Below are positions 18,637-56,675 of a stretch of 64,000 nucleotides of DNA, in pieces. Numbering within the stretch: position 1 is the first letter of the stretch; each line of letters begins with the position of its first letter. The translations under genes were made by a program, and so were the position numbers. Under the pieces are notes generated by a model. The model was not told the origin of the DNA and did not search any database. It saw only the letters and a program-made list of their open reading frames with translations. This stretch comes from Lachnospiraceae bacterium. GTDB taxonomy: Bacteria; Bacillota; Clostridia; Lachnospirales; Lachnospiraceae. The stretch is taken from the NCBI GenBank assembly GCA_015058015.1, contig SVDM01000004.1, forward strand, positions 105,501 through 169,500. The letters run 5' to 3'.

Positions 18637-18653
18637 TTATCCCATAGGGATAA
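18637..18653 (+). promoter_or_regulatory. Perfect 17-bp palindrome TTATCCC-ATA-GGGATAA in the fhs upstream region or leader
   Basis: Read directly from the sequence. It lies 24 nt upstream of the fhs ATG. A second GGGATAA half-site is at 18598-18604. A related motif sits in the acs promoter at 38338-38375. Confidence 0.35.
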
Positions 18654-18676: not shown

Positions 18677-20353
18677 ATGGAATTTAAATCGGATATTGAG
18701 ATTGCTCAGGAAACTAAGATGGAGAACATTAAAACCATAGCTGACAAAATAGGGATTGACGGCAAGTATCTTGAGTATTACGGTTATTATAAGGCAAAGA
18801 TTGATTATAATATTTTAACTGAGAAGAAAGATAAGAAAAACGGCAAGCTGATTCTGGTAACAGCTATTTCACCTACTCCGGCAGGAGAGGGAAAGACCAC
18901 AACCACTATAGGTCTGGGAGATGCTATGCGTAAGATCGGTAAGAATGCTATTCTTGCCATAAGGGAGCCTTCTATGGGACCTGTATTCGGTGTAAAAGGC
19001 GGTGCTGCCGGTGGCGGATATGCCCAGGTGGTGCCTATGGAAGATATCAATCTTCACTTCACCGGAGATATGCATGCCATAAGTGCAGCCCAGAATCTTA
19101 TTGCGGCTATGCTGGATAATCACATCTACCAGGGCAACAAGCTAAGGATTGACCCTGAGAGGATTACCTGGCGCCGATGTGTTGATATGAACGACCGTCA
19201 GCTCCGCTTTGTAAGGGATGGCCTGGGTGGCAAGACCAATGGGGTCCCCAGAGATGACGGATATGATATCACTGTTGCCACTGAGATTATGGCTATTTTG
19301 TGCCTTGCACGAGATATTCCCGATTTGAAGGAACGTCTTGCAAATATCACTCTTGGATATACATATGAGGGAAAACCTGTCTTCGTTCGAGACATAAAGG
19401 GACAGGGTGCGGCAGCGGCCCTCTTAAAAGATGCCCTTAAGCCAAACCTTGTGCAGACTTTAGAGCATACTCCGGCATTTGTCCATGGAGGACCCTTTGC
19501 CAATATCGCCCATGGTTGCAATTCGGTCATGTCCACTAAGATAGCCTTAAAACTTGGGGATTACGTGGTGACAGAAGCGGGATTCGGTGCAGATCTTGGA
19601 GCAGAGAAGTTCCTGGATATTAAGTGTCGTATGGCAGGACTAAAACCCGATGCGGTTGTTATGGTTGCCACGGTTCGAGCCTTAAAACATCACGGCGGTG
19701 TAGCAAAAGAAGACTTGGGCAAGGAGAATCTGGAGGCTCTTGATAAGGGACTACCAAACCTTTTACAGCATGTGGAGAATATAACTAAGGTTTATAAGCT
19801 TCCCTGCGTTGTTGCCATTAACGCATTTCCCACTGATACCAAAGCAGAGCTTGACTTGGTGGAGAAGCGATGCGGAGAGCTTGGAGTAAAGGTTGCCTTA
19901 TCCGAAGTATGGGCAAAAGGCGGCGAAGGCGGCAAGGCTTTGGCAGAAGAAGTTGTAAAACTTTGCGATAATTCAAATGATTTTTCCTATTCTTACTCAG
20001 ATGATGATACAATAGAACAAAAGATTATAAATGTGGCAGGGAAGGTTTACCGGGCTGACGGTGTAGCGTTTGAACCGGAAGCAGCACAGCAGATTAAAGA
20101 ATTAGAGGCAGAAGGGTATGGCAGTCTTCTTGTATGTATTGCCAAGACCCAGTACAGCTTTTCTGATAATCCGGCTCTTCTTGGAGCACCTAAAGGTTTT
20201 GACATTACCGTTCGTAAGGTAAAGGTATCTTCAGGTGCGGGATTTGTAGTAGTATATACAGGGGATATTCTTACAATGCCCGGTCTTCCGCCGATTCCCG
20301 CTGCGGAGAACATTGACGTGGATGAGACGGGTAAGATATCGGGGTTGTTTTAA
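18677..20353 (+). CDS. fhs: Formate--tetrahydrofolate ligase
   Basis: 558 aa with hallmark segments ([42 protein letters not shown]). Confidence 0.97.
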
Positions 20354-38035: not shown

Positions 38036-38272
38036 ATGGAATACGAAATCATCTACGAGATATTCAACAGCTGTTCAGGCAATCAAATGAGGGACATTTT
38101 TTTCGAAGAACGAGAGTTTTCAAGCCCTGACGAGATCGAACCCTATATACGGGAAAAGCACAAAAACACTATAGGTGACATTGACAAAACAGAGCTTGAA
38201 GATGGTGTGACAATTTTCGATTTCACCGTGGGAAATGTACCCCAGAGATACACATTTACCCCTATTGGATAA
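38036..38272 (+). CDS. Hypothetical small protein (78 aa)
   Basis: RBS ggggga 8-9 nt upstream. No domain recognised. Distant resemblance to 16927-17148. Confidence 0.45.
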   Translation: MEYEIIYEIFNSCSGNQMRDIFFEEREFSSPDEIEPYIREKHKNTIGDIDKTELEDGVTIFDFTVGNVPQRYTFTPIG

Positions 38273-38331: not shown

Positions 38332-38360
38332 TTGACATATCCCATATAGGGGGATATAAT
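38332..38360 (+). promoter_or_regulatory. Consensus sigma-A promoter for the cooC-acsA-cooC-acsB unit
   Basis: TTGACA (38332-38337), 17 nt spacer, TATAAT (38355-38360). Lies about 100 nt upstream of the cooC ATG. Confidence 0.6.
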
Positions 38361-38375
38361 TTCCCTATATATGGG
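38338..38375 (+). promoter_or_regulatory. Inverted CCC-(AT)n-GGG repeats overlapping the acs promoter (candidate operator)
   Basis: CCCATATAGGG (38341-38351) lies in the promoter spacer. CCCTATATATGGG (38363-38375) lies at about +1. The flanking TATCCCATA is shared with the fhs palindrome. Confidence 0.35.
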
Positions 38376-38460
38376 CGCGCGCAAGAGGGGTAGTGTGCCT
38401 TGGGAGAGGAACTTTTCTGTTGTGATTAACAACTCACAAACGGACGGAGGAATATTTATT

Positions 38461-39231
38461 ATGTCGAAGACTATTGCTGTAGCAGGAAAAGGTGGCGTGG
38501 GCAAAACCACCACATGTGGTCTGCTTATTGATTACTTAATCAGACACAACAAGAAACCGGTATTGGCAGTGGATGCAGATGCCAACTCCAACCTTAACGA
38601 GGTTCTCGGTGTAGAGGTAGAAGCTACCCTCGGAGAGATCAGAGAAGAAATCGCCAATGCGGAGATTGCACTTGATAATCCTATTCCCCTCGGAATGTCG
38701 AAACAGGATTATGCAAATTGGAAGTTTAACAGTGCTCTTATTGAAGAAGACGACTTTGACATGCTTGTTATGGGAAGAACCCAGGGCAAGGGCTGTTATT
38801 GTTACGTTAACGGAGTACTTCAATCCCAGATTCAGAAGTTCGCCGGCAATTACCAGTATGTGGTAGTTGATAATGAGGCGGGCATGGAGCATATCAGCAG
38901 AGGACTTCTACCCCATGTTGATATAGTTATTCTTGTAAGCGACTGTTCAAGAAGAGGCATACAAGCTGTTGGAAGAATAGCCAAGCTTATCAAAGAAATC
39001 GAACTTAATCCCAGTGAAGTAAAATTGATTGTTAACAGAGCACCGGGAGGCAAGTTAAATGATGGAATTCTTGAGGAAATCAAGATTCAGGAGCTTGACC
39101 TTGCAGGCGTGCTTCCTCATGATGAGGATGTATACGAGTTTGACTGCGAAGGAAAGCCTACGATTCAATTGCCTGCGGGTTCTGCCATGAGAGTTGAGCT
39201 TGAAAAGGTACTTGACGGTCTCAACCTGTAA
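38461..39231 (+). CDS. cooC: CODH nickel-insertion accessory ATPase CooC (copy 1)
   Basis: ATG 38461 is preceded by acggagga; the upstream extension to 38371 has no RBS. P-loop AVAGKGGVGKTT and Ni-binding CxC (GKGCYCYVN). Confidence 0.85.
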   Translation: MSKTIAVAGKGGVGKTTTCGLLIDYLIRHNKKPVLAVDADANSNLNEVLGVEVEATLGEIREEIANAEIALDNPIPLGMSKQDYANWKFNSALIEEDDFDMLVMGRTQGKGCYCYVNGVLQSQIQKFAGNYQYVVVDNEAGMEHISRGLLPHVDIVILVSDCSRRGIQAVGRIAKLIKEIELNPSEVKLIVNRAPGGKLNDGILEEIKIQELDLAGVLPHDEDVYEFDCEGKPTIQLPAGSAMRVELEKVLDGLNL

Positions 39232-39340: not shown

Positions 39341-41239
39341 ATGGAAGAATTCAAATTAACAACTATTGAGGAGTTTGAAGCGGAAACTAATAAACTTCTC
39401 GAGACAGGCGCTAAAGTTGGCGCTGATTCATGGCAGCAGAGAGCTGCTAATCAGACACCTCACTGTAAGTTTGGTGAGCAGGGTGTTTGCTGTAGAATCT
39501 GTTCTATGGGACCCTGTCGTATTACACCTAAGGCACCCCGTGGAATCTGCGGATGTGATGCTGATGGTATCGTAGCAAGAAACTTCCTTCGTTTTACAGC
39601 GGGTGGTACAGCTACTCACTCAGACCACGGTCGTGAAATTGCTTACACACTTATGGAAGCAAGCCCGGATGGTCCTTACGAAGTAAAGGATCCCGAGAAA
39701 CTTCTTGTTATTGCCAAGGAGTGGGGCGTTGAGACAGAAGGCAGAGACATCTATGATGTTGCTCATGAAGTAGCAGAATTAGGTGTTATGGAATATGGTA
39801 AGGTAAGAGGATTCCAGAGATGGATTAAGAGAGCTACTCCCGAGCGTCAGAAGACATGGGAAGAGCAGGGCGTTGCACCAAGAGCTATCGACCGTGAGGT
39901 TGTTACAGCTATGCATATGACACATATGGGTAACTCCTCATTACCTGAAGCACTTATCAGACAGTCTATCCGTTGCGGTCTTTCCGATGGATGGGGCGGT
40001 TCCATGATGGGAACAGAGTTCTCCGATGTACTTTTCGGTACACCTCACGAGGTGGAGACAGAGGCTAACCTCGGTGTTATGAAAGAGGATATGGTTAATA
40101 TCGTAGTACACGGACATGACCCCTCACTTTCAGAAATGATCGTTAAATATTCAGAGACTCCGGAGATGGTAGCATATGCTAAAGAGCAGGGTGCTAACGG
40201 AATTCAGATTTCCGGTGTTTGCTGTACATCAAACGAAGTAACAATGCGTCACGGAATTCCTATGGCAGGTAACTTTCTTGCACAGGAGAACGTCGTACTT
40301 ACAGGTGCTTGCGAGGCTATCGTAGTAGACGTTCAGTGTATTTTCCCTGCATTAGGACCCTTAAGCAAGTGCTTCCATACAAAGTTCATCACAACATCTG
40401 ACATTTGCCGTCAGCCGGATTCAGAGTTCATTCACTTTGACGCACACAATGCAAAAGAGAATGCTATCGCAATCATTAAGATGGCTTGTGAGAACTTCAA
40501 GAACAGAAAGAAAGAGCTTGTTTACATCCCGCAGATGAAGCAGAAGGCAGTTGTTGGATACTCATGCGAGCAGATTATTAAGAAACTTGACGGTGTTACC
40601 AACTCTAACGTTGATGAGATGGGAACATACAAGCCACTCGTAGAGTGCGTTAACTCAGGTGTTCTTCGTGGTGCTGTTGCTATGGTTGGATGTAACAACC
40701 CGAAACAGAGAGCAGACTTTATGCATGTTGAGCTTATGAAGAAGCTCATTGCTAATGATATTATTCTTGTATTATCAGGATGTTCAGCACAGGCTGCTGC
40801 AAAAGCAGGTCTTATGGATCCAAGAGCTAAAGAGTTCTGTGGACAGGGACTTAAGCGTGTATGTGAGCTTGTTGGTATTCCTCCTGTACTTCACATGGGA
40901 TCATGCGTTGATATCAGCCGTATGATGCGTCTTGTATGTGATCTTGCAAAAGATATGGGCTGCGAGACATACGAACTTCCTGTAGTAGGATGCGCTCCTG
41001 AGTGGATGTCAGAGAAGGCTGTATCAATCGGTAACTATGTTATCGGTACAGGTATTGATACATTCCTTGGAATCAATCCTTACACTTCAGGTTCAGAAAA
41101 AGTTGAAGGAATCCTTAAGGGAAGCATTTCTGAAATGATTGGTGCTAAGTATTTCGAGGAACATGATCTTGACAAATTAGCACAGATGATGATTGACAGA
41201 ATCGAAGAGAAGAGAGCTGCATTAGCAAGCTGTAACTAA
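39341..41239 (+). CDS. acsA: Anaerobic carbon monoxide dehydrogenase catalytic subunit (CooS/AcsA)
   Basis: 632 aa. N-terminal Cys clusters (CKFGEQGVCCRICSMGPCRI, GICGCDADG) and C-cluster region motifs (VHGHDP, SGVCCTSNE, MVGCNNP, HMGSCVD). Confidence 0.95.
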   Translation: MEEFKLTTIEEFEAETNKLLETGAKVGADSWQQRAANQTPHCKFGEQGVCCRICSMGPCRITPKAPRGICGCDADGIVARNFLRFTAGGTATHSDHGREIAYTLMEASPDGPYEVKDPEKLLVIAKEWGVETEGRDIYDVAHEVAELGVMEYGKVRGFQRWIKRATPERQKTWEEQGVAPRAIDREVVTAMHMTHMGNSSLPEALIRQSIRCGLSDGWGGSMMGTEFSDVLFGTPHEVETEANLGVMKEDMVNIVVHGHDPSLSEMIVKYSETPEMVAYAKEQGANGIQISGVCCTSNEVTMRHGIPMAGNFLAQENVVLTGACEAIVVDVQCIFPALGPLSKCFHTKFITTSDICRQPDSEFIHFDAHNAKENAIAIIKMACENFKNRKKELVYIPQMKQKAVVGYSCEQIIKKLDGVTNSNVDEMGTYKPLVECVNSGVLRGAVAMVGCNNPKQRADFMHVELMKKLIANDIILVLSGCSAQAAAKAGLMDPRAKEFCGQGLKRVCELVGIPPVLHMGSCVDISRMMRLVCDLAKDMGCETYELPVVGCAPEWMSEKAVSIGNYVIGTGIDTFLGINPYTSGSEKVEGILKGSISEMIGAKYFEEHDLDKLAQMMIDRIEEKRAALASCN

Positions 41240-41286
41240 AGCATGTTGGAACTCTTCTAATAAAATCAGAAAGGTTGTGACCTTTA

Positions 41287-42066
41287 ATGAAAATTGCTGT
41301 TACAGGCAAGGGCGGGGTAGGAAAGACTACTTTGTCATCAACACTGGCAAGATTATATGCCGAAGAAAACCGTAGTGTTCTTGCTGCGGATGTTGACCCG
41401 GATGCTAACTTAGGCTTGGCTCTCGGATTTACGGAAGAGGAGCTTGATTCTATAGTTCCTATTTCCAAGATGCGAGAGTTGGTTGAAGAAAGAACCGGCG
41501 CAAGTTCCGATGGATTGGGACAATTCTTCAGGCTTAATCCCAAGGTTGATGATATACCGGAGAAATTCGCTAAAGAATGCAACGGTGTAAAGCTTCTTGT
41601 GCTAGGAACGGTAGAGACGGCAAACAGCGGATGTGTCTGCCCGGAGCATGTAATGCTTAAGCGGATAATCTCCCACCTCTTGGTTCAGGATAAGGATGTT
41701 GTTATCCTGGATATGGAAGCAGGGTTAGAGCATCTGGGACGAGGTACTACGGAAGATATGGACCAGTTCATAGTAGTAATAGAGCCCGGAGCCAGAAGCG
41801 TACAGACATACAAGAACGTGAAGAGGCTTGCTAACGAGCTGGGAATTGAACGGGTGAGCGTTGTAGCCAACAAGGTCAGAAACGAAGCTGACGAAGAATT
41901 CATTAAGGATCATATTCCGGCAGAAGATTTACTTGGATTCATCCATTACAATGAAGAAGTGATTGATGCGGACAGACAGGGCAAATCACCATATGATATG
42001 AGTGAAGAAGCCGTTGCCGAGATTCGCACAATCAAGGACAAAATAGATAACATGTTCAATAAATAA
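41287..42066 (+). CDS. cooC: CODH/ACS nickel-insertion accessory ATPase CooC/AcsF (copy 2)
   Basis: 259 aa. P-loop AVTGKGGVGKTT and CxC motif (NSGCVCPEH). Confidence 0.85.
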   Translation: MKIAVTGKGGVGKTTLSSTLARLYAEENRSVLAADVDPDANLGLALGFTEEELDSIVPISKMRELVEERTGASSDGLGQFFRLNPKVDDIPEKFAKECNGVKLLVLGTVETANSGCVCPEHVMLKRIISHLLVQDKDVVILDMEAGLEHLGRGTTEDMDQFIVVIEPGARSVQTYKNVKRLANELGIERVSVVANKVRNEADEEFIKDHIPAEDLLGFIHYNEEVIDADRQGKSPYDMSEEAVAEIRTIKDKIDNMFNK

Positions 42067-42093
42067 TATGTTTATTCGATAGGAGGAAATACA

Positions 42094-44220
42094 TTGAGAT
42101 TACTTGACAGAGTTTTTAATGGTGCAACAACCATTTACGAACAAACAGTAAAAGCTGTTGACGAAGCAATTGCAAAATACGGTGCAGATCAGGCAGTTTC
42201 ACTTCCCGACACAGCATTTGCTCTTCCCTGCTACTATGCAGTAACAGGTGTTAAAGTTACAACACTTGGAGAGATGAAAGAAGCTTGTGAATTCCTTAAG
42301 AATTCCAACACAAGAGAGCAGCGTCTTGCTGATGGTTTCACATCAGGTATCGCTACAGCAATCGGTGCAGAGTTCACCGAGGCAATCAAATATATTGAAG
42401 GCAATCCTTACGAAGAGCCAATCGTAGCTCACTTCTCAGATGCTATGGTTCGTGAGCTCGGACTTCCCCTGGTTACAGAGGATATCCCCGGTGTTGCAGT
42501 ATTCATCGGTGAGGCTCCTTCAACACAGGAACTTTGCGATTTAATTAAACAGTATCAGTCACAGGGTATCTTCGTTGCACTTGTTGGTAAGTGTATCGAC
42601 CAGGCTGTAGAAGGAAATGCTAAGTTAGGATTCAACGTACGTTGTACACCTCTCGGATATCACATCGAGTCAGTAGTACATATCGTATCTGTTGCTCTAA
42701 GAGCAGGTCTTATCTTCGGTAACATTACACCGGGACACAACGAAGAACTTAAAGCATACACAATGAAGAGAGTTAAGGCATTCGTTAATGCTTACGCTCC
42801 TGTAGATGATGTAACAGTTGCATTTGGTGCAGGCGCAATCGCTTACGGTTTCCCTGTTATCTCTAACGATACCAATGACCTTAAGCCGGTTCCTAAGAGC
42901 ATCGTTATCCAGCCGGATACAACTAAGTTCAATGCTACATCAATCGAGGCAAGAGATGTCAGAGTTAAGATTTCTAACGTTGATATTCCTGTACCTTACG
43001 GCTCAGCTTTCGAGGGTGAGATTATCCGTAAGGGTGATATGAAAATCGAAGTTGATGGTTCCAGAATGGACTGCTTCGAGCTTGTTCAGTCCAAACCTCT
43101 TGCAGAAGTTGAAGACCACAAGATTGAAGTATTCGGAGATGACTTCGACAAATATGAAGACGGAACAAAGATTTCTATGGCTATCATCGCTGAAGTTGCC
43201 GGTAAGAGCATGCAGTCAGACTTCGAGTCAGTTATGGAAAGAAAGTTCCATGCATTTATCAACTGCGCTGAAGGTATCATGCATACAGGACAGCGTGATA
43301 TGATTCGTATCCGTGTAAGCAAAGATGCTTTCAATGAAGGATTCAGAGCTAAACACTTCGGTGAAATCCTTTACGCTAAGTTAAAGAGCGAGTACGATGC
43401 AGTTGTTGACAAATGTCAGATTAAGATTTACATCGGTGAGGAGACAACGAGACTTCGTAACGAACTTGCTACTCCTACCTTTGATCACAGAGATGAGAGA
43501 CTTGGTTCTCTTACAGATGAGAGCGTTGACGAATTCTACACATGTATTCTTTGTCAGGCATTCTCACCCAGCCATGTATGTATCGTAACACCTGAGAGAC
43601 TTGGACTTTGCGGTGCTGTTTCATGGTTAGATGCTAAGGCAACACATGAGCTTGATCCTAACGGACCTTGCCAGATCGTTAAGAAAGAACACGTTATCGA
43701 CGAGAGAGTTGGACGTATCGAAGAAGTTAACGAGGCAGTTAAGAAGTACTCACAGGGTGCTCTTGAAGAAGTTACACTTTACTCAATCATGGAAGATCCT
43801 ATGACATCATGCGGATGTTTCGAGTGTATCTGTGGTATCGAGCCTATGTCAAACGGTGTTGTTATCGTTAACCGTGAGCATACAGGAATCACACCTGTTG
43901 GTATGACATTCTCAGAGCTCGCAGCTATGACCGGTGGTGGAGTTCAGACTCCCGGATTCATGGGACATGGTAAGCATTTCATCGCTTCTAAGAAGTTCAT
44001 GAAGGCTGAAGGCGGAATCCAGAGAATCGTTTGGTTACCCAAGGCTCTTAAGGAGCAGGTAGCTGACAAGCTTAACGCTACAGCAAAAGAACTTTACGGA
44101 ATCGACAACTTCACAGACATGATCGCTGATGAGACAATCGTTGAGGGCGATCCTGAAGCATTAATGAACTTCTTAACAGAGAAGAATCATCCTGCTTTAA
44201 GCTTAGAGCCGATGATGTAA
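42094..44220 (+). CDS. acsB: Acetyl-CoA synthase subunit AcsB, copy 1
   Basis: TTG start 7 nt after AGGAGG. 708 aa. The A-cluster region has CILCQAFSPSHVC, LGLCGAVSW and SCGCFEC. Confidence 0.95.
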   Translation: MRLLDRVFNGATTIYEQTVKAVDEAIAKYGADQAVSLPDTAFALPCYYAVTGVKVTTLGEMKEACEFLKNSNTREQRLADGFTSGIATAIGAEFTEAIKYIEGNPYEEPIVAHFSDAMVRELGLPLVTEDIPGVAVFIGEAPSTQELCDLIKQYQSQGIFVALVGKCIDQAVEGNAKLGFNVRCTPLGYHIESVVHIVSVALRAGLIFGNITPGHNEELKAYTMKRVKAFVNAYAPVDDVTVAFGAGAIAYGFPVISNDTNDLKPVPKSIVIQPDTTKFNATSIEARDVRVKISNVDIPVPYGSAFEGEIIRKGDMKIEVDGSRMDCFELVQSKPLAEVEDHKIEVFGDDFDKYEDGTKISMAIIAEVAGKSMQSDFESVMERKFHAFINCAEGIMHTGQRDMIRIRVSKDAFNEGFRAKHFGEILYAKLKSEYDAVVDKCQIKIYIGEETTRLRNELATPTFDHRDERLGSLTDESVDEFYTCILCQAFSPSHVCIVTPERLGLCGAVSWLDAKATHELDPNGPCQIVKKEHVIDERVGRIEEVNEAVKKYSQGALEEVTLYSIMEDPMTSCGCFECICGIEPMSNGVVIVNREHTGITPVGMTFSELAAMTGGGVQTPGFMGHGKHFIASKKFMKAEGGIQRIVWLPKALKEQVADKLNATAKELYGIDNFTDMIADETIVEGDPEALMNFLTEKNHPALSLEPMM

Positions 44221-44243
44221 TTCAATATTATTTAATTAATATA

Positions 44244-44276
44244 CATAAGCCTCGCACAAAATGTGCGAGGCTTATG
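44244..44276 (+). terminator. Perfect 15-bp hairpin after acsB copy 1 (terminator-like, no U-tract)
   Basis: cataagcctcgcaca-aaa-tgtgcgaggcttatg, followed by cccttaattg. Confidence 0.45.
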
Positions 44277-44485
44277 CCCTTAATTGTTATGTAAACTATT
44301 ACATGGACTATTATGCAAGTAATACAAAAACAGAAAGATTGTTAAAAAATTATCCTTGTTGAAAAGTAACATATCATTCGAATTCATTAAAACGTATAAT
44401 GTTGTTAACACTGGGTTTTCCCGACAATAATGCATGGGCAGACTCTGTTAAAAAATATATATACTTATACTGGAGGTAGGTTTTA

Positions 44486-46615
44486 ATGACACTTTATGAA
44501 AGAATTTTTGCAGGTTCAGATGCAGTCTATGGATTGACCTGCGGAGCAATCGATGATGCCATCGCCAAATATGGCGCTGACAAGGCAATTTCATTCCCCG
44601 AAACAGCTTATTGCCTTCCCTGTTACTACGCAGTTACAGGACAGAAGATTAAGACTCTTGCAGAATTAAAGCAGGGATGTGAGACATTAAAGTCTCTTAA
44701 TTCCGCTGAGACAAGAGAAGCCAACCCCTTACTCTCAGGTGTAGCTACAGCTCTTGGTGCAGAGTTCTTGGAAGCATTGAAGTATATTGACGGTTCAACC
44801 CCCTATGCAGAACCCTATTATGGTCATTTACCCGATGCTATTATTCGTGAGCTGGGAGTACCTCTTGTAACGGGAGATATTCCCGGAGTTGCTGTTATTA
44901 TCGGAGAAGCACCCACAGCACAGGAAGGCGTAGATCTTATTAAGAGTTATCAGGCACAGGGTATCCTTGTTACTCTTGTGGGCAAGATTGTTGAGCAGGC
45001 ACAGAGTCTTAACTACAATATGGGATACGGCGTAAGAGTTGTTCCCTTGGGAACTGACATCACATCAGTAATCCATGTGGTTTCAGTTGCTTTAAGAGCA
45101 GCCCTTATCTTTGGTAATGTGACACCCGGAGATGCAGCCGGTCTTATGAAGTACACAGCAGAAAGAGTACCTGCATTTGTTAATGCATTTAAGCCTATTG
45201 ATGATGTTGTTCTTTCAGCAGGAGCAGGCGCTATTGCCCTTGGATTCCCGGTAATCACCAACGAAACAGAGAATGTTACAGAGGTTCCCAAGGCACTTCT
45301 TTCACAGCCTGACGTATCAAAGTTTAATCAGTTATCACTTGAAACAAGAGAAATCAAAATCAAGATTACCAAGATTGATATTCCCGTTGCTTATGCATCA
45401 GCATTTGAAGGCGAGATAATAAGAAAAGCCGATATGAAGATTGAGGCAGACGGATCAAGAGTCGATTGCTTCGAGCTTGTACAGGCAAAAGGTCTTGACG
45501 AGATTGAAGATCATAAGATTGAGGTTATCGGCAAAGACATTGATGAGTTTGAAGACGGAGAGAAGATCCAGATGGCTCTTATCGCTGAAGTCGCAGGTAA
45601 ATCAATGCAGACTGACTTTGAGTCTGTTATGGAAAGAAAATTCCATGCATTCATCAACTGCATCGAAGGCGTAATGCATACAGGACAGCGTGATATGATA
45701 CGTATCCGTGTAAGCAAAGATGCTTTTAATGCAGGTTTTCGAGCAAAACACTTTGGTGAAGTTCTTTATGCTAAGTTAAAGAGCGAATACGAAGCAGTAG
45801 TAGACAAATGTCAGATTAAGATCATAACTGATCCTGACAAATGTAGCGATCTTCGTCATAACCTTGCTATTCCCACATTTGATCATAGAGACGAAAGACT
45901 CGGCTCCATGACTGATGAGAGTGTAGACGAATTCTATACATGTATTCTTTGCCAAGCATTCTCACCAAGCCACGTATGTATCATCACACCAGAAAGACTC
46001 GGTCTTTGCGGTGCTGTTTCATGGCTTGATGCCAAGGCTACCAATGAGCTTGATCCCAACGGACCTTGCCAGATTGTTAAGAAAGAGCATGTAATTGATG
46101 AGAGAGTAGGAAGATATGAAGAAGTAGATGAAGCTGTTAAGAAGTATTCTCAGGGTGCATTAGAGCATGTTACACTCTACTCTATTATGGAAGACCCCAT
46201 GACATCCTGCGGATGTTTCGAGTGTATCTGCGGTATCGAGCCTATGTCAAATGGCGTAGTTATCGTTAACCGTGAGCATACCGGTGTTACACCTATCGGT
46301 ATGACCTTCTCAGAACTTGCTTCCATGACCGGCGGTGGAGTTCAGACTCCGGGATTTATGGGACACGGAAAGCATTTCATTGCTTCCAAGAAGTTTATGA
46401 AGGCAGAAGGCGGAATCGAAAGAATAGTATGGCTTCCCAAGGCATTAAAGGAGCAGATAGCTGACAAGCTTAACGCTACAGCCAAGGATTTATATGGAAT
46501 TGACAACTTCACAGATATGGTAGCTGACGAGACCATTGCAGAAGATGCAGAAACTCTGATGAACTTCTTAACAGAGAAGAATCATCCTGCATTAAAGTTA
46601 GAACCCATGATGTAA
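44486..46615 (+). CDS. acsB: Acetyl-CoA synthase subunit AcsB, copy 2 (tandem paralogue)
   Basis: 709 aa with a ggagg RBS. It has the same A-cluster motifs as copy 1. The N-terminal ~300 aa are clearly more diverged than the rest. Confidence 0.95.
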   Translation: MTLYERIFAGSDAVYGLTCGAIDDAIAKYGADKAISFPETAYCLPCYYAVTGQKIKTLAELKQGCETLKSLNSAETREANPLLSGVATALGAEFLEALKYIDGSTPYAEPYYGHLPDAIIRELGVPLVTGDIPGVAVIIGEAPTAQEGVDLIKSYQAQGILVTLVGKIVEQAQSLNYNMGYGVRVVPLGTDITSVIHVVSVALRAALIFGNVTPGDAAGLMKYTAERVPAFVNAFKPIDDVVLSAGAGAIALGFPVITNETENVTEVPKALLSQPDVSKFNQLSLETREIKIKITKIDIPVAYASAFEGEIIRKADMKIEADGSRVDCFELVQAKGLDEIEDHKIEVIGKDIDEFEDGEKIQMALIAEVAGKSMQTDFESVMERKFHAFINCIEGVMHTGQRDMIRIRVSKDAFNAGFRAKHFGEVLYAKLKSEYEAVVDKCQIKIITDPDKCSDLRHNLAIPTFDHRDERLGSMTDESVDEFYTCILCQAFSPSHVCIITPERLGLCGAVSWLDAKATNELDPNGPCQIVKKEHVIDERVGRYEEVDEAVKKYSQGALEHVTLYSIMEDPMTSCGCFECICGIEPMSNGVVIVNREHTGVTPIGMTFSELASMTGGGVQTPGFMGHGKHFIASKKFMKAEGGIERIVWLPKALKEQIADKLNATAKDLYGIDNFTDMVADETIAEDAETLMNFLTEKNHPALKLEPMM

Positions 46616-46620
46616 ATGAT

Positions 46621-46846
46621 ATAGACTCTCAAAGTCACCCGGCTCGTGCTTGCACGGAAGCCGGAGTGACCTTGAGAGGCTAACAAATATGAGCATGCAG
46701 CCCGATAGGGCGGAATGCGAATATTTGTAGAAACGCAAGAGCTGCGAAGCGGCGAGCGTTTCGTATATCATTTAGAAATGAAAGCGGAATGCGAATATTT
46801 GTAGAAACGCAAGAGCTGCGAAGCGGCGAGCGTTTCGTATATCATT
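46621..46846 (+). repeat. Unclassified structured intergenic element, locus A: long hairpin, conserved linker, then a hairpin module duplicated in tandem
   Basis: Hairpin 46626-46678 has a CUUG apical loop. The 40-nt linker 46689-46728 is 36/40 identical to 55431-55470. A 63-nt unit is repeated exactly at 46710-46772 and 46784-46846. Confidence 0.5.
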
Positions 46847-46963
46847 ATTAAAAACTTGCTAATTGTGAAGTGTGCATAATGATTTTTTTAATTCCTTATG
46901 CATTTGTATAAAAAAATATCCTAAAATTTTTACACAAATGATAAGATTTTAACAAGGAATAAA

Positions 46964-46992
46964 TTGACATGCCCGTCAATTCTGTGTATAAT
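46964..46992 (+). promoter_or_regulatory. Consensus sigma-A promoter for acsD-acsC-acsE
   Basis: TTGACA (46964-46969), 17 nt spacer, TATAAT (46987-46992). The -35 lies within TTGACatgcccGTCAA. Confidence 0.65.
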
Positions 46993-47122
46993 ATTTTACG
47001 GTGCTTACACAGATTTGTACCATTTTTAAAAATGTGCTTAGGGGTATATGTATAAGCTGATTACATATACGTTGCTTATAAACTATGATGTTACTTAAGC
47101 GAAACAAAAAGGAGGATAAAAA

Positions 47123-48064
47123 ATGGCTTTTAAACCCGCATCACAGAAATTTAATGCTACTATCAACCAAGTTGAAATCGGTAGCGGAGACAAGAAAATT
47201 ACTCTCGGAGGAGAATGCACATTACCATTCTACACCTTCGACGCAGAGATCCCCAATGCTCCCAAGGTAGGCGTTGAGCTTACAGACCTTGGAATCGATG
47301 AGACATTACCGGGACTCAAGGAATTCTACGCTGGTGCAGCAACTGTTGCTGAGCAGGCTGCTAAGGCTGCTACAATGGAAGGTGCTGACTTCATCTCAAT
47401 CAGATTTGAAGGTGCTGATCCCAACGGTGAGAATAAGTCTGTTGACGAGTGTGTTGAAATCGCCAAGGCAGTTGCAGACGCAACAGATATGCCTTTAGTA
47501 ATCTGCGGATGTAAGAACGCAGAGAAGGATGCCGATCTTTTCAACAAGATTGCTGAAGCATTGGCAGGAAAGAATGTATTATTCCTTGCAGCTAAGGAAG
47601 AAAACTATAAGACAGTAGGTGCATCTGCAGGTCTTGCTTACAACCAGAAGGTTGGAGCAGAGTCAGCAGTTGATATCAACCTTGCTAAACAGCTCAACGT
47701 AGTACTTGGACAGCTCGGCGTTAAGAACGAGACAATCGTTATGAACGTTGGTACAGCTACAGCAGGATACGGTTTTGAGTATGTTGTTTCTACAATGGAC
47801 AGAGTTAAAGCAGCTGCTCTTTCACAGAACGATGCAGCTCTTCAGATGCCTATTATGACACCTATCGCTTCTGAAACTTACAACGTAAAAGAGGCTATTG
47901 TTTCTGAGGAAGATTTCCCTGAGTGGGGCGACCGTGAGACAAGAGCTATCGACATGGAAATTACAACTGCAGCAGCTTGCCTTGCTTCAGGATCAAACGC
48001 TGTTATCTTAAAGCATCCGGCTTCAGTTGCAACAATTTCTAAAATGATTAAAGAATTAGTTTAA
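47123..48064 (+). CDS. acsD: Corrinoid iron-sulfur protein small subunit (AcsD)
   Basis: 313 aa with an aaggagg RBS. The N-terminus QKFNATINQVEIGSGDKKITLGGE and TIM-barrel-like body are typical of AcsD/CdhD. Adjacent to acsC. Confidence 0.9.
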   Translation: MAFKPASQKFNATINQVEIGSGDKKITLGGECTLPFYTFDAEIPNAPKVGVELTDLGIDETLPGLKEFYAGAATVAEQAAKAATMEGADFISIRFEGADPNGENKSVDECVEIAKAVADATDMPLVICGCKNAEKDADLFNKIAEALAGKNVLFLAAKEENYKTVGASAGLAYNQKVGAESAVDINLAKQLNVVLGQLGVKNETIVMNVGTATAGYGFEYVVSTMDRVKAAALSQNDAALQMPIMTPIASETYNVKEAIVSEEDFPEWGDRETRAIDMEITTAAACLASGSNAVILKHPASVATISKMIKELV

Positions 48065-48090
48065 TTAGTTGACTGAAGGAGGATTATAAA

Positions 48091-49419
48091 ATGGCATTAA
48101 AAGGTCTTGATATTTTTAAATTAACACCAAAAACAAACTGTAAAGAGTGCGGAAACCCAACATGTATGGCTTTCTCAATGAAGGTTGCTCAGGGTGCCGC
48201 TCAGTTGGACGCATGTCCCCATATTACCGATGACGTAAAGGCTCAGCTCGCTGAGGCTACAGCTCCCCCAATGAAGACCATCAAGGTTGGCGAGCATCAG
48301 CTCGGTGGAGAGACTGTTCTCTGCAGACATGAGAAGACATTCGTAAGCAAGACATTATATGCAGTAGCAATTAATGATGCTATGGATGATGCAACTGTAG
48401 ACGCTAAATTAGAAGGCGTTAAGAAAGTTGATTACGACCGTATCGGTGAGAGAATGTATGTTGAGTTCTTATATGTTAAGCATGAGGACGGAGTTGACGG
48501 AGCTAAGTTCGTTGACCTCGTTAAGAAAGCAGCAGGACTCAGCAGAAACCTTATCCTTGAAGTAGAGGATGCAGACCTTGCTAAGCAGGCAGCTGCAGTA
48601 GCAGGCGGAGATTGCATCATCAACGGTGCTACACCGGCTAACTTTGAGGCTATGAGTGCAGCAGCAACAGAAGCTAAGGCTGTACTTGGCGTTAAGGCTG
48701 GAAGCCTTGATGAATTATATGATACAGTAGCAGCTATCGAGAAGCTTGGTAACAAGAACCTTGTTCTTGATGCTACAGCAGATACAATCAAAGCTACATT
48801 CGAGAACGTAGTTCAGATCAGAAGAGCAGCTTTGAAGAACAACGACAGAACATTCGGATATCCTACAATCGTTAAGGTTGGTAAGCTTGCTAAGGATGAT
48901 GACAAGATGCAGATGGCACTTGCTTCATTATTCACAGTTAAGTATGGTTCAATCGTTGTTATGCAGGATATGACTTACGCTCAGGCTTTACCGGTATTCG
49001 GTTTAAGACAGAACGTATTCACAGATCCTCAGAAGCCGATGACAGTAGAGCCGGGTATCTACCCGATCAACGGTGCTACACCGGACGACATCTGCGCAAC
49101 AACAGTAGACTTCGCACTTACATACTTCGTAGTATCAGGAGAGTTAGAGCGCTCAGGAAAGCCTGTTAACCTTCTTATTTCTGATGCCGGCGGAATGTCA
49201 GTTCTTACTGCTTGGGCAGCTGGTAAGCTCAGTGCTTCTACCATCGCAAAATTCTTCGAGGAGCAGGATATTGCAGGCAAGATTAACAACAGAAAGCTTA
49301 TTATCCCCGGAAAAGTTGCAGTACTTAAGGGTGAGATTGAGGCTAAGCTTCCTGATTGGGAAATCATTGTTGCTCCTAACGAAGCAGTACAGCTTGTTAA
49401 ATTCATGAAGGATTTATAA
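48091..49419 (+). CDS. acsC: Corrinoid iron-sulfur protein large subunit (AcsC)
   Basis: 442 aa. N-terminal [4Fe-4S] motif CKECGNPTCMAFSMKV...C. The C-terminal corrinoid-binding region follows. Confidence 0.92.
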   Translation: MALKGLDIFKLTPKTNCKECGNPTCMAFSMKVAQGAAQLDACPHITDDVKAQLAEATAPPMKTIKVGEHQLGGETVLCRHEKTFVSKTLYAVAINDAMDDATVDAKLEGVKKVDYDRIGERMYVEFLYVKHEDGVDGAKFVDLVKKAAGLSRNLILEVEDADLAKQAAAVAGGDCIINGATPANFEAMSAAATEAKAVLGVKAGSLDELYDTVAAIEKLGNKNLVLDATADTIKATFENVVQIRRAALKNNDRTFGYPTIVKVGKLAKDDDKMQMALASLFTVKYGSIVVMQDMTYAQALPVFGLRQNVFTDPQKPMTVEPGIYPINGATPDDICATTVDFALTYFVVSGELERSGKPVNLLISDAGGMSVLTAWAAGKLSASTIAKFFEEQDIAGKINNRKLIIPGKVAVLKGEIEAKLPDWEIIVAPNEAVQLVKFMKDL

Positions 49420-49448
49420 AATAAACACATATTGAGAGGAGAGTTTCA

Positions 49449-50240
49449 ATGGCAAAATTTATCGTAATTGGAGAAAGAATTTCTACAACAGCTCCATCAA
49501 TCAACAAGGCTTTAACAGAGAGAGATCCTGAGCCTATCGTAAAGAGAGCTAAAGAGCAGATCGCAGCAGGAGCAGCTTACATCGATGTTAACATCGGACC
49601 TGCTGAATCAGATGGTGAGGAGAGAATGAAATGGGCAGTACAGCTCATTCAGTCAGAGTGTGACAACATCCCCCTTGCTCTTGACACATCAAACGCTAAG
49701 GCAATCGAGGCTGGTATCTCTGTTTACAACAGATCAAAAGGAAAACCAATCGTTAACTCTGCAGATGCAGGCGACAGAATTGGTTATATTGATCTTGCAG
49801 CAGCTAACGATGCAATCTGTATCGCACTTTGCTCAAAGGGTGTAGTTGCAGCAGATAATGACGAGCGTATGGCTTTCTTACAGGAGATGCTCGAGAGAGG
49901 ACTTGGACTTGGTATGGAAGCTGAAGACCTCTGGTTTGACCCCTTATTCCTTGTAATCAAAGGAATGCAGGATAAGCAGATGGATATTCTTGAGGCAATC
50001 AAGATGATCAGCGACATGGGACTTAACACAACAGGTGGTCTTTCAAACAATTCAAACGGTATGCCCAAGGAGCTCAGACAGATCTTCGATTCTAACCTCT
50101 TAGCTATGGCTATCATGAACGGATTTACATCTGCTATCGTTAATCCTAACGACAAGAGACTTATGGAGACAGTTCGTGTAACTGATATCATCAGAAACGA
50201 AGTACTCTATGCAGATTCTTGTTTAGATGACTTAAACTAA
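49449..50240 (+). CDS. acsE: Methyltetrahydrofolate:corrinoid/iron-sulfur protein methyltransferase (AcsE)
   Basis: 263 aa pterin-binding barrel (IGERIS, YIDVNIGP, LALDTSN, VNSA). Position follows acsC. Confidence 0.9.
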   Translation: MAKFIVIGERISTTAPSINKALTERDPEPIVKRAKEQIAAGAAYIDVNIGPAESDGEERMKWAVQLIQSECDNIPLALDTSNAKAIEAGISVYNRSKGKPIVNSADAGDRIGYIDLAAANDAICIALCSKGVVAADNDERMAFLQEMLERGLGLGMEAEDLWFDPLFLVIKGMQDKQMDILEAIKMISDMGLNTTGGLSNNSNGMPKELRQIFDSNLLAMAIMNGFTSAIVNPNDKRLMETVRVTDIIRNEVLYADSCLDDLN

Positions 50241-54631: not shown

Positions 54632-54657
54632 TCTGTGTAGATTAATCAGTATTTCTA

Positions 54658-54695
54658 AGAACCGGGGAAGTTTTCCCCGGTTCTTTTGCTTTTTG
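54658..54695 (+). terminator. Rho-independent terminator after the corrinoid protein gene
   Basis: agaaccgggga-agtt-tccccggttct hairpin followed by TTTGCTTTTT. Confidence 0.85.
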
Positions 54696-54848
54696 GGCGC
54701 ATAAGTATACAGTGTAAAATAAATCAAAAATGAGATTAAACATTGTATAAAAAACGTTTATTTATTAGAGATTACGTGCTATAATAACATGGTATGTTTT
54801 TGGAATAAATATGCATAATTTTTGTAAAGTGTAAGAGGGGATGAGCAG

Positions 54849-55355
54849 ATGACAACGGAGCACAAACATGAGCATGGACATGAGCATGAGCATGAACACG
54901 GTCACGACCATGGACATGTACACAGCCACGAACATTCCCATTACCACGAGCATAGTCATGAACATGAACACGATCACGGACATTCACATAGCCATGAGGA
55001 GATGTGTGATCACAGCCATGGAGAGGGTGAGGCACATACACATGTATTAGAGGATGGTACAATTATTACCCATACTCATCACGGACATCACCATTCAAAG
55101 GACCATATCAAGGCTGTATCCAACAGATTGGCGAGAGCTATCGGTCATCTTGAGTCCGTTAAGAGAATGGTTGAGGATGACAGAGATTGCTCAGAAGTAC
55201 TTATACAGCTGGCCGCTGTTAAGTCGGCAATTAATAATACAGGTAAGGTTATTCTTCAGGAGCATATTAAACATTGCGTTATTGATGCGGTGGAGCATGA
55301 TGATGATGAATCTCTTGAAGAATTATACAAGGCAATAGATAAGTTTATGAAGTGA
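54849..55355 (+). CDS. CsoR/RcnR/InrS-family metal-sensing repressor (DUF156 core) with a ~80-residue His-rich N-terminal extension
   Basis: 168 aa. Residues 1-82 are dominated by HEH/HGH/HSH repeats. The core NRLARAIGHLESVKRMVEDDRDCSEVLIQLAAVKSAINNTGKVILQEHIKHC has Cys114, His139 and Cys143 (spacing C-25-H-4-C). Confidence 0.8.
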   Translation: MTTEHKHEHGHEHEHEHGHDHGHVHSHEHSHYHEHSHEHEHDHGHSHSHEEMCDHSHGEGEAHTHVLEDGTIITHTHHGHHHSKDHIKAVSNRLARAIGHLESVKRMVEDDRDCSEVLIQLAAVKSAINNTGKVILQEHIKHCVIDAVEHDDDESLEELYKAIDKFMK

Positions 55356-55361
55356 GCGATA

Positions 55362-55520
55362 TGGGGACGAAAGGTCTTACAGCGATTGTGCTTGCACAAA
55401 GAGATGAAAGACTTTTCGGGCCTAACGTACATGAGCATGTAGCCCGATAGGGCGGAATGTGAATGTATGTCGAATCGTGAGAGTTGTATGCAACGGAACG
55501 ATTCGAAGTATCGCGATAGG
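55362..55520 (+). repeat. Unclassified structured intergenic element, locus B (same family as 46621-46846)
   Basis: Outer stem cgaaaggtctt / aagacttttcg. Apical tgtg-CTTG-caca. The conserved linker 55431-55470 is 36/40 identical to locus A. 3' hairpin tcgaatcg ... cgattcga with inner gttg-tatg-caac. Confidence 0.5.
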
Positions 55521-55559: not shown

Positions 55560-55877
55560 ATGTGCGAAGGCAATAGAATTACCAGCAACTGTGAGGCGGC
55601 AGGCCATGACTGCAGTCATTGCGCAGACAGCGACGGTGCAGGTGGATGTGCACATTCAACCAATGATGCTCCGGCTCAAAGAACCATGGAAGATTACCTG
55701 GACCTTACTTATAAGCAGAATCAGGTAATAGCGCTTAAACTTGATGCATATGCCAAGGACCTTCGTAAAGCAGGAAGGAACGATGTGGCAGATCAGTTAA
55801 CCAGAGCCATTCCTGAGTTCGAAAAGGGGAATATGTATATTAATCTTGCAAAGTCAATGTTGCAGGAGAGATTTTAG
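55560..55877 (+). CDS. Small Cys/His-rich putative metal-binding protein
   Basis: ATG 55560 lies 7-8 nt after aaggagg; the track ORF start at 55467 lies inside the structured element and has no RBS. The N-terminus is MCEGNRITSNCEAAGHDCSHCADSDGAGGCAH. The C-terminal helical part resembles that of the next protein. Confidence 0.55.
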   Translation: MCEGNRITSNCEAAGHDCSHCADSDGAGGCAHSTNDAPAQRTMEDYLDLTYKQNQVIALKLDAYAKDLRKAGRNDVADQLTRAIPEFEKGNMYINLAKSMLQERF

Positions 55878-55928
55878 ATTGAGAGAATAACTGTTCAGGG
55901 AACAGATAAAGTATAAGGAGGCTTTACT

Positions 55929-56459
55929 ATGAGCGAGCACAATCACGACCATGAATGCTGCCATGAGCATTCACACGAACACACACATGAGCACGGACAT
56001 TGTCACGAGCATACACATGAGCACGGACATACCCATGATCATGAGCATACCCACGATCATGAACACCTTCATACACATGAGCATACACATGCAGATGGAA
56101 CAACACATGAGCACGGACATGTACATCATCACACCCATGAGCACACAGGTGACCATGATCATGTAGATGCAGGACATGCACATACACATGACGGTGAACA
56201 TGGACATGACCATGAGCACGGACATCCACATACACATGATCATTCTCATGGAGAGAAGAAGGATTCTAATGTGGCGCTTCTTGCTTATATGTTAGATCAT
56301 AATGAGCACCATGCCGAAGAGCTGGTTGGAGTAGCTGACAAGTTGAAAGAAGCAGGATTCGACGTTCCCGCGGGCGAAATAATGGAAGGCGTTGAGTTCT
56401 TTAAGCAGGGCAATGCAAAGCTTGCAAAGGCTTTGGAAGTAATAAAAGCGCACAACTAA
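55929..56459 (+). CDS. Histidine-rich putative nickel/cobalt-binding protein (His-rich N-terminus plus helical C-terminal domain)
   Basis: 176 aa with an aaggagg RBS. About 110 residues of HEH/HTH/HDH repeats including a CC and a further C, then a non-repetitive helical domain (LLAYMLDHNEHHAEELVGVADKLKEAG...GNAKLAKALEVIK). Confidence 0.7.
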   Translation: MSEHNHDHECCHEHSHEHTHEHGHCHEHTHEHGHTHDHEHTHDHEHLHTHEHTHADGTTHEHGHVHHHTHEHTGDHDHVDAGHAHTHDGEHGHDHEHGHPHTHDHSHGEKKDSNVALLAYMLDHNEHHAEELVGVADKLKEAGFDVPAGEIMEGVEFFKQGNAKLAKALEVIKAHN

Positions 56460-56486
56460 GATTCACACTAATCGGAGGTGGCAAAT

Positions 56487-56675
56487 ATGTGTTTAGCAAC
56501 AGCTTATAAGAATAAAGAGACAAAAGAGCAGATTATTTGCGAGAATATTACTAAGATTCTTATCGACGGAGATAATATTACAATGCTTGATATTTTAGGT
56601 GATGAGATAAAGGTTGAAGGAAAGATTTCAATGGTAGACCTTACCAAGAGTGTTGTTATTATCGATGCGGCTTAA
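56487..56675 (+). CDS. cooT: CooT-family small nickel-binding protein
   Basis: ATG 56487 lies 8 nt after ggagg and gives a 62-aa protein starting MCLA. Cys2 is the Ni ligand in characterised CooT. The size and alternating beta-strand pattern fit CooT. Confidence 0.65.
   Translation: MCLATAYKNKETKEQIICENITKILIDGDNITMLDILGDEIKVEGKISMVDLTKSVVIIDAA

Follow-up and report, generated by a model that had tools for sequence, protein, structure and literature searches.

The DNA stretch analyzed in this study (the window) comprises 64,000 nucleotides of a Lachnospiraceae bacterium, a gut or rumen acetogen (contig SVDM01000004.1, positions 105,501 to 169,500). At 54849-55355 (+), an open reading frame (ORF) encodes a 168-aa CsoR/RcnR-family protein with a His-rich N-terminal half, hereafter the repressor. 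InrS (Synechocystis sll0176; PDB 5FMN) is a Ni(II)-sensing member of the same family and represses nrsD. Because InrS is the best match of the repressor in sequence and in fold, its ligand positions read His-Cys-His-Cys (H-C-H-C), and its subfamily occurs in nickel- or cobalt-linked contexts, we infer that the repressor senses Ni(II), possibly Co(II), and derepresses genes of the Wood-Ljungdahl (WL) pathway; the chances of this reading, metal and DNA targets included, are judged to be about even. A more specific model, possible though on balance doubtful, is a nickel checkpoint for acetogenesis. The InrS-like repressor would hold the core promoters of carbon monoxide dehydrogenase/acetyl-CoA synthase (CODH/ACS), and here also that of fhs, until Ni(II) is available; it carries a conserved His hairpin, and in this lineage a metal-buffering tail of 23 His-X (HX) units would set the threshold.

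The repressor, its putative metal ligands, and its N-terminal extension

The ORF starts with ATG, and a ribosome-binding site, GAGGGG, lies 8-9 nt 5' of it. PF02583 (metal-sensitive transcriptional repressor, formerly DUF156) covered residues 88-165 with 96.9 bits (E = 9.1e-28; cut-off, 22.8 bits). The match spanned profile positions 3-78 of 78, hence the whole domain. None of the NCBIfam equivalogs for RicR, FrmR, and RcnR came near its cut-off with the repressor (RcnR model, 35 bits vs. a cut-off of 138). The best sequence match in the PDB was InrS 5fmn (E = 1.3e-19). InrS 5FMN was also the top Foldseek match against the PDB (target-normalised TM score 0.84, 40% identity), and the Foldseek matches with E < 0.03 were exclusively CsoR-family structures. 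The AlphaFold2 (AF2) model, a monomer built on 62 subfamily sequences, has helices at residues 84-109, 114-149, and 153-167 with a pLDDT (predicted local distance difference test score) of 84-98.

The putative ligands Cys114, His139, and Cys143 are spaced C-25-H-4-C, and His82 lies 32 residues ahead of Cys114. H82/C114/H139/C143 pair with H21/C53/H78/C82 of InrS in the HMMER alignment to 5fmn, and a MAFFT alignment with characterised members agrees. The sequences of RcnR, FrmR, Mycobacterium tuberculosis CsoR, and Bacillus subtilis CsoR used in it were checked against published ligand numbering. Positions W-X-Y-Z read His-Cys-His-Cys, and all four are invariant in the alignment of 62 subfamily sequences. 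The second-shell positions A, B, and C are Asp113, Glu158, and Ser155, respectively. Position A is Tyr in all six aligned Cu(I)-CsoRs, Pro in InrS, and Glu in RcnR. The InrS second-shell pattern (Foster et al., 2014) is therefore present at A (no Tyr) and B (Glu); position C is Ser rather than Glu or Asp, with Asp153 and Glu154 beside it.

Sequence and predicted fold confirm that the repressor belongs to the CsoR/RcnR family, with H-C-H-C as in InrS. The first-pass annotation, made from the letters of the window, had placed a DUF156 core in the C-terminal half and had read C-25-H-4-C with a His at -32; the profile search bore out the former, and the alignments with InrS and the family the latter. 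The W-X-Y-Z scoring that it had proposed against CsoR, RcnR, InrS, and FrmR gave H-C-H-C with Asp, not Tyr, at position A. An orthologue in the genus G282 (L202, G282:C48) departs from the set. It keeps the His hairpin and Cys114, and KEYIENS stands in the place of H139/C143, so that two of the four canonical ligands are lost; a Cys-rich DUF8180 gene still follows it.

The first 87 residues contain 34 His. His occupies each odd position from 5 to 49, giving 23 consecutive HX dipeptides. A density of at least 9 His per 30-residue window was found in about 9 of the 10,072 ORFs of the genome, three of which are antisense or spurious frames, so that the His content is well outside what chance would give. 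The N-terminus had been annotated as an exceptionally long polyhistidine domain of about 80 residues. Its length and His-richness held, and its unity did not: it consists of a lineage-specific, length-variable (HX)n tract and a conserved hairpin.

The pLDDT is below 50 across residues 1-59, which are thus predicted to be disordered. The DNA of the tract has an imperfect periodicity of 6/12/18/24 nt. More than 7,400 relatives were found in a collection of 5.8 billion proteins; the best 120 measure 102-205 aa and have a core identity of about 70%. The tract is unconserved in sequence and length among relatives. A long tract (19-35 His) marks the closest ones (70-98% identical), at least seven of which, including that of the window, lie in the same WL context. 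One HE unit is added in a relative of 98% identity, and the tract is short or missing in most subfamily members, for example in the 111-115-aa Blautia-type proteins. The 93-aa orthologue of G005 has neither tract nor hairpin, yet it heads a gene row of repressor, His-rich protein, CooT, CODH, CooC, and ACS.

The hairpin module AHTHVLEDGTIITHTHHGHHHSKDH has the consensus H-T-H-V-L-E-D-G-T-x-x-T-H-x-H-(G)-H-G-H-x-H-S across a large Lachnospiraceae subfamily. H65, D69, G70, H75, and H82 are invariant in the 62 sequences, and H63, T71, H78, G79, and H80 are nearly so. AF2 places a beta-hairpin here, with strands 62-66 and 72-76 (pLDDT about 60). Two or three tandem hairpin units occur in some relatives (e.g., P0011 and P0024). 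The motif H.H..DGT..H.H was found in 2 of the 10,072 genome ORFs, namely the repressor and the His-rich protein encoded two genes downstream. The neighbouring His-rich proteins (window 55560-56459 (+); L039 and L030 elsewhere) contain HTHADGTTHxH in one to five copies, a unit of the same hairpin type as HTHVLEDGTxxTHTH of the repressor. Such a motif may be a portable metal-binding unit common to the sensor and a putative storage or chaperone protein. Other strongly His-rich ORFs of the genome, identified by eye from their N-termini, are a COG0523-like GTPase with 19 His in 30 residues (C10:109110-110222 (+)), a LarC-like ORF (C20:10953-12239 (-)), and a 172-aa His/Cys-rich ORF (C7:85170-85688 (-)).

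Gene neighbourhoods, paralogues, and candidate operators

The neighbours named in the first-pass annotation, namely CooT, metal-rich proteins, and CODH/ACS, are all present. The order corrinoid protein, repressor, Cys-rich DUF8180 protein, His-rich DUF8180 protein, and CooT was found in at least seven lineages. The sister species (G001) and five metagenomic lineages retain it in a longer form, with an amino-acid-binding protein after CooT. Genes in relatives were called from ORFs, DUF8180 was taken from the precomputed annotation of orthologues, and kin genomes are non-independent samples. The subfamily repressor adjoins NikA-like ATP-binding cassette (ABC) importers in G002 and G006 (best NCBIfam match "nickel ABC transporter substrate-binding protein", below cut-off), a CbiO-like energy-coupling factor (ECF) ATPase in G013, and MATE exporters in G037. 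Its most frequent setting elsewhere in Lachnospiraceae is a triad in which it stands between p78 and an MrpORP-like ATPase. In about 40 related loci, the recurrent partners of the subfamily were CooT, DUF8180 proteins, CODH/ACS, and NikA- or CbiO-like genes; copA or copZ stood beside the repressor in none of them.

A p78 gene is also present in the window, at the CODH/ACS cluster. Its homologues (75-80 aa, no Pfam match) were found in 44 of 400 Lachnospiraceae genera sampled. Among p78 loci inspected in 29 genera, p78 is followed by the repressor in 10, usually with Mrp next, and by cooC and CODH in 3. Further p78 homologues are followed by a recurrent gene without assigned identity.

Three PF02583 genes were found in the genome (2.57 Mb, 29 contigs). 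The paralogue on contig C2 has a Tyr-Cys motif and lies directly 5' of an HMA-domain copA. This csoR-copA promoter has two boxes of the ACACCCCC type, read ACACCCCCC-T-GGGGTGT. The paralogue on C3 is a 90-aa orphan (C3:181558-181800 (-)) with a ATACCCCCTATGGTAT box over its own -10. The boxes of both are distinct in type from TCCC-(AT)n-GGGA boxes, the copper-type boxes here being ACACCCCC/ATACCCC. Since the genome has a separate Tyr-type CsoR beside copA, the repressor is, judged by gene content, not the copper sensor. Because the promoters of the two other paralogues bear box types of their own, TCCC-(AT)n-GGGA would remain as that of the repressor.

Boxes also precede a 628-aa CPC-type P1B ATPase that has neither an HMA domain nor an adjacent regulator (C20:41565-43526 (-)). 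Its promoter has ATATACCCCCAGGGGTATAT and ATACCCCTATGGGTAT; the second is nearly identical to the box over the -10 of the C3 orphan, and the other is of the C2 type. Control of this ATPase by the C3 orphan is suggested. Its substrate class is ambiguous, with similar scores against Cu and Zn/Cd ATPases. The ATPase was considered as a target of the repressor and rejected, given its C2/C3-type boxes and ambiguous class.

Upstream of the repressor gene, the first-pass annotation had proposed 54700-54848 for a DNA-binding assay (EMSA). No family-type operator was found there, and a C-tract/G-tract box was absent from the repressor's own promoter in all seven orthologous upstream regions. The only part conserved across these regions is the promoter block CGTTTATTTAT...TGnTATAAT. 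AT-rich inverted repeats differ between the seven, and the upstream region was rejected as an operator. The gene appears, from this comparison, not to be autoregulated. The best candidate operators of the repressor are most likely those at the cooC-acsA and fhs promoters.

The promoter of cooC-acsA(CODH)-cooC-acsB reads TTGACA-t-ATCCCATATAGGGGGAT-ATAAT-TTCCCTATATATGGGCG (38332-38376), with one box between the promoter elements and a second behind them; the candidate at fhs is a palindrome (Table 1). The long ORF called for the first cooC (38371-39231 (+)) begins inside the second box, and its alignment with relatives starts from residue 31 (MSKTIAVAGKGG). Translation probably starts at the ATG at about 38461, which would leave a 5' leader of about 95 nt.

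Boxes of the TCCC-(A/T)n-GGGA type were found at the own operons of subfamily members elsewhere: ATAACCCCTATAGGGGGATAT (L032), AACCCTATAGGGGGGAT (L036), TTCCCATGGGAA (L042), TTTCCCGGGGGAA (L178), and TTATCCCCCGGGTGA (L195). CODH operons of other genera also have boxes. That of G001 (TTATCCCCCCACAGAGGATAT) is at the same spacer position and is degenerate; those of G282 (ATATCCACTAGGGAGGGATAT), G404 (ATAACCCCTAGGGGGGGAT), and G005 (TATCCCCCCGGGGTGG) lie after the -10, before the -35, and 7 nt before the -35, respectively. The box of G016 (ATCCCCCGTATGGGGTAT) lies over the -10 of a His-rich/CooT/MetF/CooC/CODH/CooC/ACS operon. All five box-bearing genomes encode the subfamily repressor, which in G005 is the sole PF02583 gene detected. 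No family-type box was found at two ACS clusters from other families, in genomes without the subfamily repressor. A promoter-pattern scan of a collection of genome contigs gave more than 118 matches, mostly generic TTGACA-N17-TATAAT, with C/G tracts in about 12; the cooC promoter pattern had 0 matches in a collection of metagenome contigs.

Proposed mechanism and competing explanations

In this family, the apo form binds DNA and the inducer releases it (PMC11672702, PMC4235346, PMC3046157). The H-C-H-C clusters (InrS, NcrB/NreA) are Ni/Co sensors (PMC8643695). NcrB has the operator ATCCCCCTGGGGGGGAT and is freed from DNA by Ni (PMC3046157). By analogy, an apo-tetramer of the repressor would occupy C-tract/G-tract operators, and Ni(II), possibly Co(II), bound at an inter-subunit site of Cys114' with His139 and Cys143 would cause DNA release. 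An arm His (His82, or His63/65/75/77 of the hairpin) may complete the site. The hairpin, with His63/65 and His75/77 on adjacent strands, would be the functional part of the N-terminal extension and may cover the sensory site as a lid or feed it with metal. The (HX)23 tract is pictured as a disordered, low-affinity, multi-site metal binder, lineage-specific and not essential to the family mechanism, that probably tunes the threshold or buffers metal. With the cooC-acsA-cooC-acsB core promoter and fhs as targets, the Ni-dependent carbonyl branch and part of the methyl branch would be made only in the presence of the metal.

Several points weigh against this proposal. InrS itself binds Cu and Zn tightly in vitro. 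Glu95 at position C of InrS is replaced by Ser155, and the G282 orthologue (L202) lacks His139 and Cys143. The structure 6AHX shares the Asp-Cys motif and a His-rich N-terminus, and its depositors label it a copper-sensing CsoR; a literature search on 6AHX returned no pertinent paper. The first-pass annotation had likened the ligand fingerprint to those of CsoR and InrS and had suggested, from the gene's position, a nickel (or cobalt) sensor with a built-in metal buffer. The InrS-like H-C-H-C set stands, but the metal cannot be predicted from a fingerprint by itself (Foster et al., 2014, PMC4235346).

The genomic setting adds to these points. ACS is absent from 8 of 11 relatives bearing the subfamily repressor and present in 3, so the family is not CODH-specific. 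No Ni exporter or dedicated Ni importer is linked to the repressor in this genome: no nrsD-like exporter was found in the unit or its flanks, and no NicO/RcnA homologue or CbiM in the genome. The only NikA-like system is the NikA/Opp5A-like ABC operon at C10:379587-385360 (-), which sits behind an adenosylcobalamin (AdoCbl) riboswitch (RF01482, 63 bits); in this Ni-dependent acetogen, the transporter may carry cobalt or corrinoid.

The operator argument has its own weak points. None of the fhs genes of G001, G016, and G005 showed the fhs box, and the cooC box of G001 is degenerate. Loose forms of the box motif number about 30 in the genome and fall mostly within genes. Any argument from enrichment is post hoc, with 3 of about 7 intergenic sites in WL promoters. 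ATCCCC...GGGGAT also lies 5' of Tyr-type csoR-copA in metagenome-assembled genomes of Patescibacteria and Gammaproteobacteria, so the metal cannot be read from the box type; ATCC/GGAT vs. TACC/GGTA arms were rejected as a guide to the metal for the same reason.

The most probable of the rivals is itself rather unlikely. The repressor would be a Ni sensor of its own unit only (the Cys-rich protein, the His-rich protein, and CooT), and the boxes at cooC-acsA and fhs would belong to another paralogue or be fortuitous. The operon-like order and the short gaps in orthologues fit this explanation, as does the frequency of similar short motifs in coding DNA, together with the unconserved fhs box and the degenerate box of G001. 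However, the own promoter has no family-type operator in seven orthologues, the other two paralogues have distinct box types, and CODH-operon boxes recur in 5 other genera, all with the subfamily repressor.

The repressor may, at comparably low probability, sense another His-preferring divalent metal, Co(II) or Zn(II), and its link to CooT and CODH would then be incidental. Transporters and chaperones for Zn and Co typically have (HX)n tracts. Corrinoid is a further requirement of the WL pathway, the repressor gene directly follows genes for a corrinoid protein and a methyltransferase, and one relative (G013) adjoins the CbiO-like ECF ATPase. RcnR, moreover, responds to Ni and Co (PMC11672702). 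Yet the most recurrent context, with CooT, CooC/CODH, and His-rich "hp"-type proteins, is one of nickel handling, and an InrS-like Cys2His(2) planar site favours Ni(II) (PMC4235346).

A second Cu(I)-sensing CsoR is improbable. Its His tail would bind Cu(II)/Cu(I), and it would back up the copA-linked CsoR, for instance through the C20 P1B ATPase. The x-C-H-C set, Glu at position B, and the copper label of the close structural relative 6AHX agree with such a role, and the ATPase offers two CsoR boxes without an adjacent regulator. Nevertheless, position A is Asp113, unlike the Tyr of every Cu-CsoR compared, a canonical csoR-copA pair is already in place, the boxes of the ATPase match those of the C2 and C3 promoters rather than the WL type, and 0 of the roughly 40 subfamily loci lie beside copA or copZ.

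A non-metal sensor, in which Cys114 and Cys143 would detect persulfide, redox state, or an electrophile as in CstR/FrmR and the His tract would be a neutral low-complexity expansion, is very improbable: the two conserved Cys are as in CstR, and the tract varies in length, differs by an HE unit between near-identical relatives, and is missing in most subfamily members, but His139 at Y is invariant, unlike in the x-C-x-C clusters of CstR, an FrmR-like Pro2 near the site is lacking, the His hairpin is invariant, and no sulfur-transferase, sulfur-oxidation, or formaldehyde-detoxification genes lie nearby.

Local features and comparison with known systems

The features of the window are listed in Table 1.

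Table 1. Positions, strands, and supporting evidence of the repressor, its parts, its neighbours, and its candidate targets in the window.
Feature	Position	Strand	Evidence or remark
Candidate target 2: palindrome TTATCCCATAGGGATAA, perfect over 17 bp, its end 23 nt before fhs ATG	18637..18653	+	sequence read
fhs (formate-tetrahydrofolate ligase)	18677-20353	+	PF01268, E 1e-269
p78, 78-aa protein, no Pfam match, just 5' of the boxed cooC promoter	38036..38272	+	homologues precede repressor in many genera
cooC-acsA promoter: -35 TTGACA 38332-38337, -10 TATAAT 38355-38360	38332..38376	+	consensus elements
Candidate target 1: box ATCCCATATAGGGGGAT, C3-N5-G5, filling the 17-nt spacer	38339-38355	+	sequence read, exact match
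Candidate target 1: second box TTTCCCTATATATGGGCG, C3-N7-G3, over start region	38361-38376	+	sequence read
CODH/ACS cluster	39341-50240		Pfam/neighbour survey
Terminator ending the preceding corrinoid-protein gene	54657-54685		strong terminator
Repressor promoter: -35-like TTTATT 54757-54762, 17-nt spacer, extended -10 TGcTATAAT 54777-54785	54757..54785	+	conserved block
His-tailed CsoR/RcnR-family repressor gene, 168 aa	54849..55355	+	ORF, PF02583 E 9.1e-28, InrS 5fmn E 1.3e-19, Foldseek InrS TM 0.84
(HX)n low-complexity tract, residues 5-57, one Cys (C53), predicted disordered	54861..55019	+	composition, AF2
Conserved His hairpin module, residues 61-86, incl. W-position His82 (codon 55092-55094)	55029..55106	+	conservation, AF2
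Three-helix CsoR/RcnR core, residues 88-168	55110..55352	+	Pfam, PDB match, AF2, MAFFT
Cys114 codon	55188-55190	+	core ligand X
His139 codon	55263-55265	+	core ligand Y
Cys143 codon	55275-55277	+	core ligand Z
Clostridiales-1 RNA (RF01699), gap between repressor gene and Cys-rich gene	55357..55513	+	99.9 bits
Cys-rich DUF8180 protein, 105 aa	55560-55877	+	DUF8180 marked on orthologues
His-rich DUF8180 protein, 176 aa	55929-56459	+	DUF8180 marked on orthologues
CooT	56478-56675	+	PF10133, E 7e-16

A common C-terminal domain of the Cys-rich and His-rich proteins was considered and rejected, the pairwise comparison being not significant (E = 0.63). The sister species (G001) has the Clostridiales-1 RNA at the same place after the repressor gene (115.8 bits); the other orthologous lineages lack it, and their gap between the repressor and Cys-rich genes is just 14-46 nt. 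RF01699 is present in 10 copies in the 2.57-Mb genome (G000), two of them in the window (46616-46771 and 55357-55513 (+)). Seven of the 10 begin -8 to +2 nt from the stop codon of an upstream co-directional gene, and the sites include those after groEL, between ribosomal protein genes, after acsB2, and after the repressor gene. This placement suggests an intercistronic or 3'-end element and not an independent small RNA.

The regulation of the WL pathway and the supply of nickel to CODH/ACS are poorly understood in acetogens. If the proposed role is true, the repressor would be the first CsoR/RcnR-family sensor shown to gate the synthesis of a metalloenzyme pathway rather than efflux or detoxification, and a first dedicated transcriptional regulator of WL genes in Lachnospiraceae. 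The CsoR/RcnR paradigm would be widened from efflux control to metalloenzyme supply, and a Ni-responsive switch would be at hand for engineering gut and gas-fermenting acetogens. The locus makes the question testable, as it offers a sensor, a hairpin, natural tails of about 4 to 35 His, and, for six genera, candidate operators at the CODH/ACS promoter.

The closest known system is InrS. The two proteins share 42% core identity (E = 1.3e-19), an H-C-H-C set with identical spacing, a residue other than Tyr at position A, Glu at position B, and a His-rich N-terminal arm, in which "H-S" of the repressor is aligned with His21-Ser22 of InrS. They differ in the number of N-terminal His (about six in InrS vs. 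34), in the hairpin, which only the repressor has, and in position C (Glu in InrS, Ser here). No nrsD-like exporter lies nearby, and the candidate targets are metalloenzyme operons (CODH/ACS and fhs), whereas that of InrS is an efflux gene. NcrB of Leptospirillum ferriphilum and NreA are also small His-rich repressors with the same ligand pattern, but they are 89 aa long, have no hairpin or (HX)n extension, and regulate Ni efflux. The operator of NcrB (PMC3046157) resembles the ATCCC...GGGGGAT box at 38339-38355.

RcnR of Escherichia coli shares a His 32 residues before the Cys, a ligand-giving N-terminal arm, and the efflux-type derepression logic of the family. It differs in its H-C-H-H set with the N-terminal amine and His3, whereas Z of the repressor is Cys143 and its W-position His is residue 82; core identity is 22%. 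The Cu(I)-CsoRs of M. tuberculosis, B. subtilis, Geobacillus, and the C2 paralogue share the fold, the C-H-C ligands, and Glu at position B. They have Tyr at position A and adjoin copA/copZ, in contrast to the Asp of the repressor and its lack of such adjacency. CstR has an x-C-x-C set without the conserved Y-position His and lies among sulfur-oxidation genes; His139 of the repressor is invariant, and it has no such neighbours.

CooJ, the N-terminal tracts of HypB, Hpn, and "hp" of acetogens share long, His-rich, probably disordered Ni-binding tracts with the repressor. They are chaperone or storage proteins without a DNA-binding domain, whereas the tract studied here forms part of a repressor. 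The HxH-ADGT-xHxH motif is common to the repressor and the neighbouring His-rich protein. The hp-CooT pair of acetogens is conserved beside WL clusters and has no defined role yet (PMC10230548). New here, relative to these systems, are a conserved and previously undescribed hairpin module, the extreme length of the His tail, the repeated linkage to CODH accessory genes, and family-type candidate operators on CODH/ACS promoters.

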